In this document: one piece after another, positions 19,093 through 31,362 of the stretch | How the letters are laid out: each line of letters starts with the position of its first letter | How positions within the stretch are numbered: position 1 is the stretch's first letter | Source: a virus | DNA: 64,000 nucleotides | IMG/VR virus record: IMGVR_UViG_3300020172_002676 | Span: 39,805 to 103,804 of that record | Strand: one strand, 5' to 3' | The notes under the pieces: generated by a model | Told to the model about the DNA's origin: nothing | What the model saw: the letters and a program-made list of their open reading frames with translations, nothing else | Databases searched by the model: none | Program-made: the position numbers and the translations under genes

Positions 19093-19693
19093 TAAATGTA
19101 AAATTGAAAAAGATGTTTGCGAGTTTAATAAAAAATTAATTAGTAATAAAGGAATTCAATATTATAAAAGTTGGTGTAAGAATTGTCAATCTGAGGAAGA
19201 TAAATCTAAAAGATTATTGAACCCTGAAAAATATAAAATATGGTATGATAAAACTCGTAAAGAACGCAACGAGCACAGGTCAGAATATTATCAACATAAT
19301 AAAGAAAAAATTTTAATACAAAATAAAAAGTATAAGGGAGTTAATAGTGTTAATCGTAAAAAAAAATATGATAAAGATATTTTATTCAAATTAAGACATA
19401 GATTAAGTTGTAGACTTAGAGAAGTATTAAAATTTAAAACATTAATAAAAAACAAAACTCATAATGAAGTTATGGGTTGTTCTTCGGAATTCCTTAAAGA
19501 ATATTTAGAAAAACAATTCACAGAAAAAATGTCTTGGGAAAATCATGGATTTTATGGTTGGCATATAGACCATATCGTTCCATTATCATCGGCGAAAACA
19601 GAAGAAGAAGTTTATAAACTTTGTCATTATACAAATCTTCAACCACTATGGGCTGAAGATAATTTGAAAAAGGGAGATAAGATTTTATTTTAA
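19073..19693 (+). mobile_element. Free-standing HNH homing endonuclease
   Basis: N-term CxxC...CxxC, C-term MSWENHG..WHIDHIVPL...HYTNLQPLW..DNL.K. Confidence 0.85.
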
Positions 19694-21360
19694 CTTTCTT
19701 TTCTTAAACTACCTTCATAGAATTCAAATCTATCGTGTTCTGTTGGAGTTAATAACAAAATACCTGGATTAATATTTCCTTTAACTGTTTCCTGATAACA
19801 ATGAGACATAAGAGTTTGTTCAAATGGATGAGCCCATTTTGTTTCTAAGTAACATTTATAATTACCCGATTTACTTAACACAATTGGCCAGTTGGACAGA
19901 TATATTTCACCATCGGCATAAGGTAATCCCTGATGTATTTTAATGTTTTTAAATTTAGTTCTTGGAGCATTTGGGTCTAAACCTTGAACAGGTAATGATG
20001 ATTTTTCGGGAAATAATTTTATTCTAACATCTTGAGGAACATTATACCACGAAAATTGTATATCATTTGAACCATAAAATTCGGTAAAACTTAATTTTAA
20101 AAAATCAAAATTTTCATTTTTAATTATTTGTAATGTTTTTGTATATAAGTTTGGAACAAATCTATTAAAACCATTTCTACATACTTCACCTTTTTTAAGA
20201 TAAAAAGCCATGTCATCTTCAAACCAATAATAAAAATCTAATCCTGTTTCATCAAAATGTTCTGCAACAAATACTCTACCCCCAACGATTCCTATATTAT
20301 CTTTCTTAATATGTTCAAATCCGTGTTCTTCACAAAGTTCTTTATATCTTGGAGTTGTTGATAGGTCAGTTGAATTATCTAGTAAAAACTTTTTTGGTTT
20401 AAGAATAAAATCTTTATCATATTCCAACATTGACTTTATTAATGTTTCAAATTGGTTTGGACTATTAAAAGTAATAACATAAAGACCAACCTTATTAATA
20501 TCTAAATTATTAACAACAGATATTTTACCTTCAGATTTAACTTTTAATTCATCATTCTTTAAGTCCTCAAAAAATTTACCTATTAATCCATTTGATTCTA
20601 TTTCAAAATAATTTATTAAATCAGAATGTTTATAAGACATAATTGAGAAAATACTTTCTTCAGTTCCCATATATCCTTCATCTAATGTTGATGATAATAA
20701 TCCATAATAAATTGAGTTGATGTCGGTTATTGTATGTTTTGGACCACCAAAAAATCCACCTCTAGCAACTTTAGTTACTTTATCTCCAGCAATTGAATTT
20801 AACTTATTATACTCAAACCCGTGAATTTCGGTTTCGGCTCCGTAAGGAAAACAAATAAATGAAAATTTTGAAATGTATTTAGGTAGTTTTTCTAAAACTT
20901 TATCGTGTGTAAAATATCCTGGATGAACAGTGTTTGTTAATCCCGCATCAATCCAAAACATCATCTCAGAATTAAACGTATCCATAATCTTAGCATCATT
21001 TAGTAAGAATACTTTTGACATTACTAAAGGATTATACATATCTAACCTTGCTTGTGTTGATTCTGATAACCATCCAGCTCGGTTGTACCATTCAGGATTA
21101 TTTCTTATTTCTTGTATTTTATCGTATGGAACCGTTTGTTTAAACCATTCCTGTTGTCTAACAATAAATTGTGTATTTGATTTATCCCTCCTTTCAAAGA
21201 CAAAAGATTCTAATTCGGAATCACCAAAAATAATCATTGGGTTATCAACCTTTAAAAGTTGTTCAAATTTATCTAAATAATGTTGGAATGAACGAGACCA
21301 TCCATCATTAAGTTCGTCTCTTTTAATATTCCAAAGGCCAGTTACTAATGTTATTCCCAT
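19690..21360 (-). CDS. HtrL/YibB-like glycosyltransferase fused to GT-A domain
   Basis: TLVTGLW, YNPLVMSK, WIDAG; second domain LLDNS...WFEDD. Confidence 0.65.
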   Translation of the reverse strand: MGITLVTGLWNIKRDELNDGWSRSFQHYLDKFEQLLKVDNPMIIFGDSELESFVFERRDKSNTQFIVRQQEWFKQTVPYDKIQEIRNNPEWYNRAGWLSESTQARLDMYNPLVMSKVFLLNDAKIMDTFNSEMMFWIDAGLTNTVHPGYFTHDKVLEKLPKYISKFSFICFPYGAETEIHGFEYNKLNSIAGDKVTKVARGGFFGGPKHTITDINSIYYGLLSSTLDEGYMGTEESIFSIMSYKHSDLINYFEIESNGLIGKFFEDLKNDELKVKSEGKISVVNNLDINKVGLYVITFNSPNQFETLIKSMLEYDKDFILKPKKFLLDNSTDLSTTPRYKELCEEHGFEHIKKDNIGIVGGRVFVAEHFDETGLDFYYWFEDDMAFYLKKGEVCRNGFNRFVPNLYTKTLQIIKNENFDFLKLSFTEFYGSNDIQFSWYNVPQDVRIKLFPEKSSLPVQGLDPNAPRTKFKNIKIHQGLPYADGEIYLSNWPIVLSKSGNYKCYLETKWAHPFEQTLMSHCYQETVKGNINPGILLLTPTEHDRFEFYEGSLRKES

Positions 21361-21366
21361 AAATTA

Positions 21367-29371: not shown

Positions 29372-29373
29372 TC

Positions 29374-31362
29374 TTATGTTCTTGTTGGTGTTGGCGTTTT
29401 AGTGTTTGTTGGAGTATTAGTTGGGGTTTTAGTATTTGTTGGTGTCGGTGTTGGAGTAACACTTGTTGGAGTATTCGTTGGTGTCGGTGTTGGGGTTGGT
29501 ATTATTACTTGACAATCAGGACAATCAGGATTTAATAAGTTATATTTATCTTTTAATATTCTAAAGTTATGTTTAATTTGAGAGGCGTTTAATGGTTCTG
29601 TATACATTCTAAATGCGCTCACATCACCAATCATACTACCACCAAAGATTTCCTCTAACTCAATATGAGTTGTAAGTCCAGAATAAATTGTGTTATCCAA
29701 ATCATTTGTTGTTAAACATTCAGGGTCTTGTTGGTAAGTAAGGTCATTTAATGTTTCAGGACATCCACCAGAAAAAGTTAAATTATCGTGAAGTCCTTGA
29801 GTACCTCCACCCAAAGAAATATTATAACCAACACCAATTTGTTTTTCTTTTTCAACATTTAATAATCTTGGAATAATTTCTTCAAAGTTTTCGGTAACCA
29901 TAAAAAGTTTACCATTAACATAAAACTTAAGGGTCCCCATTCTAAAACTTTGTTCTTCAGTCCACATATCTGTGAACGTTACAACTTCAGTTGTTGCTGG
30001 GTCATAAGGTTGTTCTCTTGTTATTGGTGGTTCAATTAAACTAACACTTCTATTTTCTATTGTTGCAAAATATACCGTCTTGGCTAACAATCCAATTCCA
30101 CCTTTATCGTATAAATCGCAGACATCCATCCACGTATATCGTTGGAATACGGCATCAATTTGAACCCAATGTTCATAATCAATATATGGTGTTAATTTAC
30201 ATTCATCAAATATACCTCTTGTTGAACACCATTCAGTTATAGATGTTCCCGTAACATATGTTAATCCTGTTAGACAAACACCACTATATTCACACCCACC
30301 AGTTATTCTATATGTTTTAACACATAATCTTGGATTTCCCGTATCACCGCTTAATCGTAACGATATTCCATTTGAAACACCATCATATAATGGGTCTTTT
30401 TCAGGGTATTTGGCAGTTGAAGTACAACCACAAGGACAACCACAATCACAATGAGTTATTGTTCCTCCTGATGGTTGATAAACCTCAAGACACATTGACG
30501 ATGTGTTCGCACTACTAGCACATCCGCAAGTATGCATACAAGTTAAACCTGACGTAACTCTTGTGTATCCTGAATCTTGTTTTGGAGAACCATCGGCATA
30601 ATGATAAAATTTATTCTCGGCTCTCGCACCCATATAAAAGAATGTTCCCTTATTGTCTGGGTATCTATAATTAAGACCAACACTTGTGTCACCACTCCAT
30701 CGGTATCTTAACATAAATTCAGATGTCCACCCCAAATCAACTCTTTGTGGGAATACCTGATAATCATATCCAGCAATTTTATAAAATCCTTGAAAAAATC
30801 CTCCGTCTAATTTTGCAACATATCCAATATCACCCCCAACATTCTCATACGATAAATTATATGTATACGAATTATCATTCCATAATCTATTTTCAGTTGT
30901 GGTAAAACCTGTGATAGGGTGCATTTTCATTCTCCTATCGTATTTGTATCTACTAAACTTATCTGTTGTACCTGAATATAATCCTGTCGTTATTTCTATG
31001 GTTTCACCAGACATATTCTGAACTAAACCATTATCAATTCCTGTCAACCCAACATCACATAATTCTGTTGTGACTACACAAAAGTTGGGGTCAATATTTT
31101 TTGGGTTCCAATAATTTTCAGAAACAATTGTATCGGCACTAAACACACAGGGAGAAATTTGACATAATGTTGTCCCACTGCTATTTAAGTTAAACTTAAA
31201 TGGCATTCTATTCCCATCGTTTTCTGCGATTAATAATGGAGAAAAAACAACTTCTTGGTCATAATCTTTCTCGTCTGACGCTAAGCAAATGTCAGTTATT
31301 TCATTAACTGGTTTTAACCCAAATCTACGAAAATTGTATTGATTAATATTTTGATATGCCAT
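29374..31362 (-). CDS. Cys-rich LamG/concanavalin-like protein with C-terminal TP tail
   Basis: LKFYVNGK...IGDVSAFRMY..PL...QI..NF; CxCGCPCGC cluster; ends (TP)n. Confidence 0.65.
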   Translation of the reverse strand: MAYQNINQYNFRRFGLKPVNEITDICLASDEKDYDQEVVFSPLLIAENDGNRMPFKFNLNSSGTTLCQISPCVFSADTIVSENYWNPKNIDPNFCVVTTELCDVGLTGIDNGLVQNMSGETIEITTGLYSGTTDKFSRYKYDRRMKMHPITGFTTTENRLWNDNSYTYNLSYENVGGDIGYVAKLDGGFFQGFYKIAGYDYQVFPQRVDLGWTSEFMLRYRWSGDTSVGLNYRYPDNKGTFFYMGARAENKFYHYADGSPKQDSGYTRVTSGLTCMHTCGCASSANTSSMCLEVYQPSGGTITHCDCGCPCGCTSTAKYPEKDPLYDGVSNGISLRLSGDTGNPRLCVKTYRITGGCEYSGVCLTGLTYVTGTSITEWCSTRGIFDECKLTPYIDYEHWVQIDAVFQRYTWMDVCDLYDKGGIGLLAKTVYFATIENRSVSLIEPPITREQPYDPATTEVVTFTDMWTEEQSFRMGTLKFYVNGKLFMVTENFEEIIPRLLNVEKEKQIGVGYNISLGGGTQGLHDNLTFSGGCPETLNDLTYQQDPECLTTNDLDNTIYSGLTTHIELEEIFGGSMIGDVSAFRMYTEPLNASQIKHNFRILKDKYNLLNPDCPDCQVIIPTPTPTPTNTPTSVTPTPTPTNTKTPTNTPTNTKTPTPTRT

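Follow-up and report, generated by a model that had tools for sequence, protein, structure and literature searches.

The characterised enzymes of glycosyltransferase family GT60 are polypeptide alpha-GlcNAc-transferases. Their acceptors are mucin-like Ser/Thr domains or the Hyp of Skp1, and the DxH motif is a hallmark of GT27 and GT60 (PMC7185993, PMC8724618, PMC3769586). Protist members (PF11397) include the T. cruzi mucin pp-alpha-GlcNAcT and, in Dictyostelium, a Golgi enzyme and the cytoplasmic Skp1 enzyme Gnt1. Viruses also glycosylate their own proteins. In the account given in PMC12619734, which cites Freeman et al. 2023, mycobacteriophage transferases act in the bacterial cytoplasm on structural proteins of the phage itself: the glycosylation is experimentally shown, and the glycans sit on extensions (the C-termini of capsid and tail-tube proteins), not on folded cores. 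Giant viruses (Megavirinae, chloroviruses) have nucleotide-sugar pathways and many cytoplasmic glycosyltransferases that act on surface proteins independently of the host, encoded in clade-specific glycan gene clusters (PMC9614988, PMC10117803).

The locus described here belongs to an abundant, uncultured freshwater jumbo phage, and lies in a window of 64,000 nucleotides (the whole stretch of DNA that was analysed) from a contig that is 35% complete. Its GT60 homologue has a strong profile match to the protist enzymes and the DxH motif; like them it has no ricin-type lectin domain, like Gnt1 it is soluble and cytoplasmic, and like the T. cruzi mucin enzyme it has dense Thr/Pro mucin-like tracts as predicted acceptors. 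The likeness to the Skp1 pathway extends to later soluble glycosyltransferases, one of them bifunctional, and to fucosyltransferases (PMC8724618). Unlike the protist enzymes, this type of GT60 is encoded by bacteriophages and bacteria, has an additional conserved C-terminal domain of ~125 aa, and is partnered by an HtrL-type tandem GT-A protein and hypervariable cassettes, its acceptor and donor both being predictions. The mycobacteriophage systems, as PMC12619734 presents them, use other glycosyltransferase families and have no glycan repertoire comparable to the 30 genes here and no comparable nucleotide-sugar synthesis; in the system predicted here, glycans are likewise proposed on extensions, namely the inter-domain Thr-Pro (TP) tracts of modular lectin-like proteins. 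Giant viruses differ in having eukaryotic hosts and other initiating enzymes and acceptors, whereas the tailed phage described here is predicted to start its glycans with GT60 on TP tracts.

Thr-Pro tract genes and the adjoining operon

Three minus-strand genes with long Thr/Pro tracts (27555-31362) are followed by a terminator and by nine close-packed or overlapping genes (19690-27471). This layout, described in an earlier note on the same DNA, is borne out, with every listed open reading frame present at its coordinates on the minus strand:

31391..31398, minus strand: TATAAATA, a putative T4-late-promoter-like motif ~29 nt upstream of the 662-aa gene
29374..31362, minus strand: open reading frame for a 662-aa modular protein, candidate acceptor, with a C-terminal TP tract (residues 618-660)
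28814..29371, minus strand: 185-aa protein with a small N-domain, a TP tract (61-108) and a small C-domain
27555..28769, minus strand: 404-aa protein, candidate acceptor, with three small globular modules and two TP tracts (68-138, 250-323)
27500..27531, minus strand: intrinsic terminator at the boundary between TP genes and enzyme operon, 14 pairs, the strongest in the region
26203..27471, minus strand: GT60 (PF11397) polypeptide HexNAc-transferase homologue, predicted initiator (Pfam 6e-65)
21367..26190, minus strand: hypervariable tailoring cassette, seven genes here (Pfam and comparison of relatives), as follows
25633-26190, minus strand: methyltransferase-like (no Pfam match; SAM-binding-like motif by eye)
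25001-25630, minus strand: FkbM methyltransferase (Pfam)
24385-25023, minus strand: weak methyltransferase match (MetW, sub-threshold only)
23679-24383, minus strand: PLOD-type glycosyltransferase (Pfam, 53 bits against a cut-off of 27)
22709-23692, minus strand: GT10 fucosyltransferase (Pfam, 45 bits against a cut-off of 24)
21996-22709, minus strand: GT-A-like, a lead only (no Pfam match; ESM Atlas similarity to viral Nucleotid_trans/GT8 clusters)
21367-21993, minus strand: CmcI-type O-methyltransferase (Pfam)
19690..21360, minus strand: 556-aa tandem GT-A protein (HtrL556), predicted bifunctional extender (Pfam HtrL_YibB, residues 3-251)

The tracts consist of T (43%), P (26%), N (8%), V (6%) and S (5%). 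They are beyond chance, since the (TP)4T pattern is found in 0/39 control viral contigs and in none of the phages RsoM2USA, RaK2 and Atu_ph07. The N-terminal body of the 662-aa protein (615 aa) is conserved and includes a ConA/LamG-like jelly roll; it is 81-88% identical across more than 2000 proteins in which it is joined to a TP linker and differing C-terminal modules (DUF285 'surface protein', LamG). Its AF2 model (pLDDT 82) matches ConA-like proteins and virion structural proteins of S-PM2. The 185-aa gene starts 2 nt past the 662-aa stop in a different frame, and a homologue of its product is encoded at another place in the complete relative G001. Modules of the 404-aa protein reappear in other TP proteins of G001; its sole match, PHROG 15511 (unknown function), is confined to the tract. 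As previously claimed, the TP proteins have no signal peptide: no hydrophobic N-terminus and no TM segment is present in any of the three. A fourth TP gene lies in the tail-fibre module, beside genes for a collagen-like tail fibre and the baseplate.

The terminator, placed at 27501-27532 in the earlier note and found at 27500-27531, does separate the TP genes from the enzyme genes, and it is kept in relatives with compensatory stem changes. The TATAAATA motif stands before the 662-aa gene in 30/30 relatives while the surrounding DNA otherwise diverges, and is also found upstream of the sheath gene; it lies ahead of GT60 in only 2/80 relatives. Its weight rests on this conservation because the motif has no genome-wide enrichment.

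Pfam bears out the GT60, PLOD-type, GT10, HtrL and methyltransferase assignments in the operon. The GT60 match is far above threshold (220 bits against a cut-off of 21), and the protein, 85-95% identical among 80 relatives, has a DxH motif (IDSH) and a HEYTR block that do not vary across nine divergent homologues, the most distant of them at 33% identity. HtrL556 has 61-98% identity to its counterparts in relatives and 41% to those of the phages XacN1 and RAS14. Its HtrL_YibB N-domain is followed by a second GT-A domain with an EDD motif, and the top PDB matches of its AF2 model (pLDDT 75) are the tandem GT-A enzymes LH3, Mimivirus R699, LARGE1, K4CP and COLGALT1, a fold that agrees with its description as a double glycosyltransferase.

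Conservation in relatives is limited to GT60 and HtrL556, and the seven genes that separate the two make up the hypervariable cassette: those of this strain are found in just 2-8 of 80 relatives, the slot has at least 18 alternative architectures (the commonest being GT25 with an unknown 295-aa protein), and in the lake-run contigs divergence begins exactly at the GT60 stop. The proposed nine-gene operon thus stands as a set of genes and falls as a single fixed pathway, its core being GT60 and the HtrL tandem glycosyltransferase only. Because the fucosyl, PLOD and methyl genes sit in the strain-variable cassette, the 'methylated, fucosylated' glycans envisaged earlier are narrowed to a predicted variant of this strain; two of the four proposed methyltransferases are firm and the other two plausible.

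Association of GT60 with Thr-Pro tracts

GT60 is present in only 4/50,697 phage records. Among viral contigs selected solely by a (TP)5T DNA pattern it occurs in 15/53, and in 6/7 of those above 150 kb; among control contigs selected by an unrelated Walker-A pattern it occurs in 0/39, and in 0/9 above 170 kb (Fisher p = 1e-4 and 9e-4, for counts that take in related contigs and are not fully independent). The co-occurrence of GT60 and TP repeats raised in the earlier note is thus enriched relative to controls, and in isolates the two are present or absent as a pair. XacN1 (48 tracts), Xoo-sp13 (38 tracts) and RAS14 have both, with GC ranging from 31% to 50%; RsoM2USA, reported to be the nearest relative of XacN1, has neither, nor do RaK2 and Atu_ph07.

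The two are also neighbours. In the source lineage and in four other phages (G024, G033, G031 and G025, the last at 36% identity), the gene immediately upstream of GT60, in the same orientation, is a TP open reading frame; in another (G008, 36% identity) it is two genes away, so that the phage order of TP gene then GT60 is kept down to 33-36% GT60 identity. Bacterial loci of several phyla, at least 14 in all, show the same direct upstream position (Sphingomonadales, Gemmatimonadota, Vicinamibacterales, Actinomycetes); in these, the TP proteins, hydrolase-like and protease-like ones among them, are unrelated to each other save for the tract. The GT60 clusters of XacN1 and RAS14 do not directly adjoin a TP gene.

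XacN1 is the isolate that brings experimental evidence to bear. Its virions contain at least two Schiff-positive glycoprotein bands, putatively attributed by the authors to ORF328/ORF334, and the paper does not mention the GT60 family, TP tracts or a link between them (PMC5852040). ORF334 is the GT60 homologue. XacN1 resembles the source lineage in gene order, with GT60 (46% identity) and the tandem glycosyltransferase of HtrL type (41% identity) accompanied by the 295-aa gene, and it has numerous TP-tract proteins. It is otherwise almost unrelated, with only 17/395 ORFs in common with G001, among which the genes for GT60, the 295-aa protein and HtrL556 clearly stand out as the most conserved, and its cassette has a carbamoyltransferase in place of the fucosyl and methyl genes. 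Co-occurrence, adjacency, the isolates and the XacN1 glycoprotein stain together support the central proposal, a functional coupling between GT60 and TP tracts.

Thr-Pro tracts are ordinary flexible linkers, and small phages and proviruses do have them in the absence of GT60 (GT60 in 0/5 proviruses and in 1/8 complete contigs below 150 kb). The transferases might then act on other phage proteins, either capsid or decoration proteins or a Gly-X-Y collagen-like tail fibre, with the tracts as plain linkers. The genome encodes a collagen-repeat tail fibre, the PLOD-type and GT25 cassette enzymes and the HtrL556 fold resemble the collagen-glycosylating LH3, COLGALT1 and Mimivirus R699, and the mycobacteriophage glycans reported in PMC12619734 are on capsid and tail-tube C-termini. 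We nevertheless regard such acceptors as unlikely: they leave unexplained the adjacency of TP gene and GT60 down to 36% identity, the 14 bacterial loci with partners alike in the tract alone and the paired presence or absence in isolates, and the genes of PLOD type and of GT25 belong to the variable cassette, outside the conserved core.

The conserved TATAAATA motif, the LamG/ConA-like fold with its S-PM2 resemblance, the swapped C-terminal modules, the fourth TP gene in the tail-fibre module and the TP-bearing XacN1 ORF325, which comes after baseplate wedge genes and matches an RsoM2USA gene annotated as a structural protein, all hint at a late or virion role for the TP proteins; the 662-aa protein is likely a late, virion-surface protein. 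The TP proteins could instead be acceptors of GT60 that stay outside the virion, for instance soluble proteins with lectin-like or enzyme modules that work inside the infected cell or escape when it lyses, and that might bind or degrade host surface polymers. Particle location is deduced here from motif, fold and gene position, a lectin-like body does not by itself imply virion binding, and the hydrolase-like and protease-like partners in bacteria would suit such a role. It is an improbable one, however, given a late-type motif that is conserved and common to the sheath gene, an N-body that is conserved while the distal modules are exchanged (as is usual in phage fibres and adhesins), the fourth TP gene within the tail-fibre/baseplate block and the glycoproteins of XacN1 particles.

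A second glycan island and other possible substrates

The extent first given to the system, 19690-31362, is too small: a second glycan island, with its own variable cassette, is found at 34-53 kb.

34044..38630, plus strand: conserved start of the second island, 67-73% identical in G001
34044-35252, plus strand: GT1-like protein, in the conserved start
37005-38630, plus strand: GT2_5+GT4 double glycosyltransferase, in the conserved start
38627..49046, plus strand: second variable cassette (Pfam/PHROG)
51054-52106, plus strand: GT1-type glycosyltransferase, conserved
52108-52914, plus strand: GT2 glycosyltransferase, conserved (51054..52914 pair 70-74% identical in G001)

Exonuclease, dUTPase and HAD genes are scattered within the conserved start. 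The variable cassette encodes a UDP-Glc dehydrogenase, GT2, a GT11 fucosyltransferase, two FkbM methyltransferases, KAS III, a hexapeptide acyltransferase, a PhyH dioxygenase, a DegT aminotransferase fragment, a GDP-mannose 4,6-dehydratase and a GT1_2-like protein; it is almost wholly missing in G001, where other genes occupy the slot.

Bacterial HtrL/YibB and GT25 relatives are associated with LPS, and HtrL/YibB, GT25, GT10/GT11, FkbM methyltransferases, GMD and DegT are typical of O-antigen/LPS clusters, which are likewise hypervariable. The islands could accordingly serve to build or remodel host envelope polysaccharide (LPS core/O-antigen, capsule) during infection, which might block superinfection or alter the cell surface. 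This is very unlikely. All enzymes of the system are soluble; no polyprenyl-phosphate priming transferase, Wzx/Wzy flippase or polymerase, ABC exporter or ligase is present in the source contig or the complete relative, and neither encodes a polytopic membrane protein (the maximum is 6 TM, in a distant 349-aa protein). The initiating family is known for polypeptide acceptors only, and the same core is found in phages whose hosts differ widely (Xanthomonas, Stenotrophomonas, probably Bacteroidota).

Glycosylation of DNA is known from T-even phages and from recently described GT-A/GT-B clusters. Hypermodification of phage DNA against restriction, by glycosylation of hydroxymethyl- or hydroxy-pyrimidines, would have as precedent variable phage clusters that add mono- to trisaccharides to DNA, some of them near structural genes (bioRxiv 10.1101/2023.12.21.572611, PMC13326640), and dUTPase and nucleotide-metabolism genes are scattered in the second island. 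Still, it is the least credible of the readings: the single thymidylate-synthase homologue in the complete relatives scores as true ThyA (TIGR03284, 303 bits against 108), leaving no paralogue for a hydroxymethylase role; a Tet/JBP match was not found in a search run without a positive control; GT60 is outside the families reported for DNA; and XacN1 DNA is cleaved by BssHII, NaeI and SpeI (PMC5852040). Both the host-polysaccharide and the DNA-modification readings are without their defining genes.

A model for glycosylation of phage proteins

With GT60 right after the TP genes and a strain-variable tailoring set behind it, the phage probably adds a sugar coat to late proteins of its own that are likely virion components. 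We favour, with moderate confidence, a phage-encoded, cytoplasmic, mucin-type protein O-glycosylation system. The soluble, DxH-bearing GT60, predicted to be a retaining UDP-HexNAc:polypeptide transferase, would start the chain by attaching a sugar to Thr, or perhaps Ser, within the long Thr-x-Thr-Pro tracts that link the globular modules of late proteins. HtrL556 would then add the next one or two sugars as a conserved core, and the strain-variable cassette (GT10 fucosyltransferase, PLOD-like glycosyltransferase, GT-A-like protein, two to four methyltransferases) would tailor the chain. The 34-53 kb island may contribute further transferases along with enzymes of nucleotide-sugar chemistry (GDP-mannose dehydratase, UDP-Glc dehydrogenase, aminotransferase/acyltransferase). 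The glycosylated TP proteins, with their LamG/ConA lectin-like bodies and tail-fibre-region modules, would be built into or displayed on the virion, giving it a stiffened, protease-resistant and serotype-like glycan coat that would differ between closely related phages.

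The Thr-Pro proteins and their genomic setting

The source contig (103.8 kb, GC ∼31%) has an estimated completeness of 35%, and its close relatives reach 317–321 kb and carry terminal repeats; the source is therefore an uncultured jumbo myophage. The window, bases 39805–103804 of this IMG/VR contig, codes for a family-B DNA polymerase, a helicase and the tail sheath; upstream of it, the same contig has genes for baseplate wedge proteins, a protein of tape-measure size and a tail fibre with collagen repeats. No isolate phage matches the region in a megablast search. The contig's DNA is present in lake or freshwater runs from 8 studies, and one enzyme from the lineage has >6000 close homologues: the lineage is widespread across lake metagenomes. 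The genes at issue are as follows.

29374–31362, minus strand: 662-aa protein with a Thr-Pro (TP) tract
28814–29371, minus strand: 185-aa TP protein
27555–28769, minus strand: 404-aa TP protein
19690–27471, minus strand: nine-gene glycosyltransferase (GT) operon
26203–27471, minus strand: GT60 gene, first of the operon
21367–26190, minus strand: seven-gene tailoring cassette
19690–21360, minus strand: HtrL556, a 556-aa HtrL-like protein
19073–19693, plus strand: 206-aa HNH/His-Me-finger-like endonuclease, converging on the end of the GT operon and overlapping the HtrL556 stop
C1:1–5216 of the source (G000, locus L302), upstream of the window: protein of 721 aa carrying six SprB repeats, beside the collagen fibre and a 354-aa TP protein
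Same interval: collagen-repeat (PF01391) tail-fibre protein, in the baseplate/tail block

All ORFs listed in the earlier note are present, and the three genes that it placed upstream of the operon do carry TP tracts, of 43–74 residues (T 43%, P 26%, then N, V and S), set between or behind small globular modules. The three proteins lack signal peptides, as had been claimed, and hydropathy gives no transmembrane segments either. Pfam and NCBIfam return nothing for them. The 662-aa protein shares its conserved 615-residue body with >2000 proteins, in which the C-terminal modules that follow the body and TP linker differ (DUF285 ‘surface protein’ repeats, LamG and others); some end at the tract, as the 662-aa protein itself does. 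The predicted model of this body (pLDDT 82) is a ConA/LamG-type jelly roll resembling annotated virion structural proteins of Synechococcus phage S-PM2. The Foldseek search of the PDB reads as a ‘ConA-like lectin fold’; kinship with the individual matches was rejected, these being weak, generic jelly rolls (E ∼1e-3, TM ∼0.2) that include clostridial neurotoxin receptor-binding domains, a cyanophage tailspike and a pilin lectin module.

Small modules of the 404-aa and 185-aa proteins reappear in other TP proteins dispersed over G001, a complete 321-kb relative, and the fourth TP protein (354 aa) adjoins the collagen-like tail fibre and baseplate genes. The predicted fold, the swappable modules and the site of this fourth gene fit exposed, modular, late proteins, probably located on the virion; it is unlikely that glycosylated TP proteins serve a non-virion role instead. 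The collagen-repeat fibre is a possible alternative acceptor of glycan, and a reading in which the GTs glycosylate other phage proteins, such as this fibre or the capsid, likewise has a low probability. The GT operon directly adjoins the TP genes, and fold, upstream motif and context mark these as putative structural genes. In 30/30 relatives the motif, TATAAATA, precedes the 662-aa gene by ∼29 nt; it stands upstream of GT60 in 2/80 only. It was rejected as a genome-wide late signal because its 25 occurrences in 104 kb equal the count expected from composition, and this candidate element carries weight only through having been kept in front of the 662-aa gene. The terminator proposed between the TP genes and the enzymes is found at 27500–27531; it is the region's strongest, and relatives keep it with compensatory stem changes.

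At 29369–29376, the 662-aa gene stops just past its TP tract and the 185-aa gene begins 2 nt on in another frame. Many relatives have a single protein of 850–1140 aa, in which the same N-terminal body is followed by a TP linker and then by a C-terminal module; gene splitting, exchange of a module or a frameshift site may account for the junction. Between 27837 and 29464, lake-run contigs show many length variants, with skips of 56–1518 nt within and between TP tracts, which fits tract-length polymorphism or assembly slippage in repeats.

GT60 genes 68–73% identical to that of the window lie on short contigs (L427–L434) in Saprospiraceae/Bacteroidia metagenome-assembled genomes (MAGs), and one lies on a 230-kb contig; L427–L434 are probably phage contigs binned together with their host, or prophage-like DNA. 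SprB is a gliding-adhesin motif of Bacteroidota. This binning and the neighbouring SprB repeats hint at a host among the Bacteroidota.

GT60 and its association with Thr-Pro tracts

The GT60 protein matches PF11397 at 6.1e-65 (220 bits; cut-off 21), in an alignment that spans profile positions 96–351 and an N-terminal block. DxH replacing DxD is the hallmark common to GT60 and GT27 (PMC7185993), and it is present here: the Q-I/L-D-S-H-x-R-F and H-E-Y-T-R blocks are unchanged across nine phage homologues of 33–72% identity. The absence of a C-terminal ricin-type lectin domain sets GT60 apart from GT27 (PMC8724618), and Pfam finds no ricin domain in the protein. Residues ∼297–422 form an extension that is kept in phage homologues and has no Pfam assignment. 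PDB sequence searches with GT60 and HtrL556 gave nothing useful. At the level of sequence, the gene product is a GT60 enzyme; its predicted activity would be the transfer of alpha-GlcNAc from UDP-GlcNAc to Ser/Thr or Hyp of a polypeptide, for which co-occurrence and adjacency with TP tracts speak indirectly. Such enzymes are rare, occurring in 4/50,697 isolate phage records and in 0/14 reference bacteria.

In a whole-genome census, GT60-bearing G001 and the isolates XacN1 (50% GC) and Xoo-sp13 have 9–17 TP-tract ORFs with 38–48 tracts, and two isolates lacking GT60, RaK2 and RsoM2USA, have zero. RsoM2USA is the reported nearest relative of XacN1 (PMC8504454). The GT60-bearing isolate RAS14 has the TP pattern, and Atu_ph07 has neither pattern nor enzyme. 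Only 17/395 ORFs are common to G001 and XacN1, the top three matches being HtrL556, GT60 and a 295-aa gene.

Co-occurrence across genomes, which the earlier note had named as a check, is enriched against controls. GT60 was found in 15 of the 53 IMG/VR contigs that were chosen only by a (TP)5T DNA pattern and searched (6/7 above 150 kb), and in none of 39 control contigs chosen by an unrelated Walker-A pattern (0/9 at 171–371 kb), from which the (TP)4T pattern is also absent; Fisher tests give p = 1e-4 for the whole set and 9e-4 for the large contigs, with related contigs counted separately and kinship ignored. The positives include lineages whose GT60 is only 33–36% identical to that of the window. 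On two phage contigs with distant GT60, a TP gene is the direct upstream neighbour of GT60 (G025), or TP genes stand two genes away on both sides (G008).

Of 79 bacterial GT60 loci, 33 have an ORF with a strict TP tract no more than 8 kb away, kinship again being ignored. In 14 of the 79, spanning Sphingomonadales, Gemmatimonadota, Vicinamibacterales and Actinomycetes, the TP ORF shares the strand of GT60 and ends upstream of it, at a distance of ≤200 nt. The bacterial partner proteins share no other relation, and include Rv2525c-like hydrolase-domain proteins, a sedolisin-like protease and proteins of unknown family. TP tracts without GT60 occur in small phages and proviruses, so the tract can do without GT60, though GT60 is very often accompanied by the tract. 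Among the papers searched, none describes a GT60/TP link in phages.

At nine Sphingomonas/Novosphingobium-type loci (L462, L465, L469, L471, L472, L475, L477, L485 and L496), a protein of 1200–1450 aa ends a few bases before GT60. These proteins combine TP tracts with an Rv2525c-like glycoside-hydrolase-like domain, and the pair looks like a conserved bacterial two-gene unit.

Purified virions of XacN1, a distant relative, show at least two Schiff-positive glycoprotein bands, for which no protein is named and the two annotated GTs are proposed as makers; the same paper mentions neither the GT60 family nor TP tracts (PMC5852040). One of those two GTs, ORF334, is a GT60 homologue.

Conserved anchors and variable cassettes

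The earlier note's list of operon contents holds in Pfam for GT60, a PLOD-type GT, GT10, HtrL_YibB and CmcI- and FkbM-type methyltransferases; two further ‘methyltransferases’ and a ‘DxD GT’ have no curated match. Pfam and NCBIfam return nothing for 21996–22709 or 25633–26190. An Atlas search ties the former to viral Nucleotid_trans/GT8-like clusters, as a lead only. The HtrL-like ‘double GT’ is borne out by the HtrL556 model, which has two GT-A domains and whose best structural matches are the tandem GT-A enzymes LH3, Mimivirus R699, LARGE1, K4CP and COLGALT1.

Comparison of 80 related loci separates anchors from cassette: GT60 is 85–95% identical and HtrL556 61–98%, and the seven genes between them recur in a handful only. 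The overall interpretation is partly supported: what stands is the GT60/TP link, through co-occurrence and adjacency; the tailoring genes that it included are strain-variable. The slot between GT60 and HtrL556 holds at least 18 different gene sets, most commonly GT25 with a 295-aa protein of unknown family; others have GT10, GT2/GT7-like, GT1-like or RXYLT1-like enzymes. One lake-run contig tracks the window through GT60 and departs exactly at the GT60 stop codon. The lake-run sequences are all contigs (two from libraries labelled metatranscriptomic) and so carry no information on transcription or transcript ends; missing cover at 21.2–25.8 kb means another cassette in that population, nothing more. 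Only ∼10/80 relatives have a homologue of the 206-aa endonuclease at its site (40–49% identity), a distribution suggestive of a mobile homing endonuclease.

This design is repeated in a second and larger glycan island.

34044–53663, plus strand: second glycan island, four conserved GT proteins flanking a 10.4-kb cassette
38627–49046, plus strand: its cassette, with UDP-Glc dehydrogenase (UGD), GT2, GT11, two FkbM methyltransferases, KAS III, hexapeptide acyltransferase, PhyH, DegT, GMD and a GT1_2-like protein
45113–46015: PhyH gene of this cassette
C1:28772–29065, 152970–153233 and 162023–162214 of G001: prolyl-4-hydroxylase-superfamily (PF13640) genes

G001 carries other genes where this cassette stands, the replacement being almost total. 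Genes for a PolB-type exonuclease, dUTPase, HAD phosphatase and PhoH are scattered through the island. With conserved anchors and swappable tailoring sets in both islands, ∼30 phage genes are given to glycan work.

Phage GT clusters have a genuine use in DNA hypermodification, and such a role here is extremely improbable. The hydroxylated pyrimidine acceptor would be made by a TS-like hydroxymethylase/5hoC synthase or by TET/JBP with a C5-MTase; the complete relatives have a single thymidylate synthase (TS) homologue, with the score of a true ThyA, no Tet_JBP match was found (in a search run without a positive control), and the DNA of a relative, XacN1, is cut by three restriction enzymes. That the islands make a host surface polysaccharide (O-antigen or capsule) is also very unlikely. 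Hydropathy profiles of every ORF on the contig and on G001 show, in or near the islands, none of the polytopic membrane proteins of a Wzx/Wzy- or ABC-dependent cluster (polyprenyl-phosphate priming transferase, flippase, exporter, polymerase or ligase), and an initiating enzyme from a polypeptide-acceptor family sits badly with this reading. A prolyl-hydroxylase (Hyp) route was rejected as part of the core: PF13640 is present in G001 and absent from XacN1, Xoo-sp13, RsoM2USA and the source contig, and so lies outside what is conserved. The products of the PF13640 genes and PhyH may hydroxylate proteins or sugars in some lineages.

A proposed glycosylation pathway and its meaning

On balance, it is probable that the phage encodes a cytoplasmic mucin-type O-glycosylation of its own TP-tract proteins. 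From the observed gene set, motifs, folds and comparative pattern, we infer the donor, acceptor residue, order of steps and display on the particle. In the cytoplasm, GT60 would transfer HexNAc onto Thr of the TP tracts, and the tandem GT-A enzyme HtrL556 would lengthen the chain to a conserved core. Cassette enzymes would then attach strain-specific residues (here fucose, another hexose, a further sugar and O-methyl groups), and the second island would attach further residues and provide GDP-6-deoxyhexose, uronic and amino/acyl sugars.

The phage system would work like the mucin-type and Skp1-type glycosylation of protists, the virion glycosylation of mycobacteriophages and the autonomous glycan machinery of giant viruses. 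As in the last, nucleotide-sugar synthesis (GMD, UDP-Glc dehydrogenase, DegT and an acyltransferase) is encoded by the virus together with 12 or more GT proteins, and its two cassettes differ among close relatives. It departs from all three in its phage host setting, predicted TP-tract acceptor, HtrL tandem-GT partner and two hypervariable cassettes. To our knowledge, experimental cases of phage-particle glycosylation are few, and little is settled about the enzymes or the rules by which acceptors are chosen. The present data link one initiating family, GT60, to a simple, recognisable candidate acceptor motif, and the pairing across distant phages and bacteria could make glycoproteins predictable from sequence alone.

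More tentatively, with a chance that we put a little short of even, GT60 and TP tracts constitute a general, unrecognised prokaryotic mucin-type O-glycosylation, common to several jumbo-phage lineages and to bacteria of many phyla, to which the protist GT60/Skp1 pathways are related; lake phages would use it to build a virion glycocalyx diversified by cassette swaps into glycan ‘serotypes’. The system also bears on where the mucin-type and Skp1 glycosylation of eukaryotes came from, and the soluble bacterial and phage enzymes are possible tools for mucin-like glycopeptide synthesis. Direct testing is possible with the cultured relatives XacN1, Xoo-sp13 and RAS14 and the public virion proteome PXD008065. 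The variability of the cassettes suggests strong diversifying selection on the phage surface glycan, which bears on host recognition, fibre protection against proteases and grazers, and phage serotyping; glycan ‘serotypes’ of viruses, if true, would be an analogue of bacterial O-antigens.
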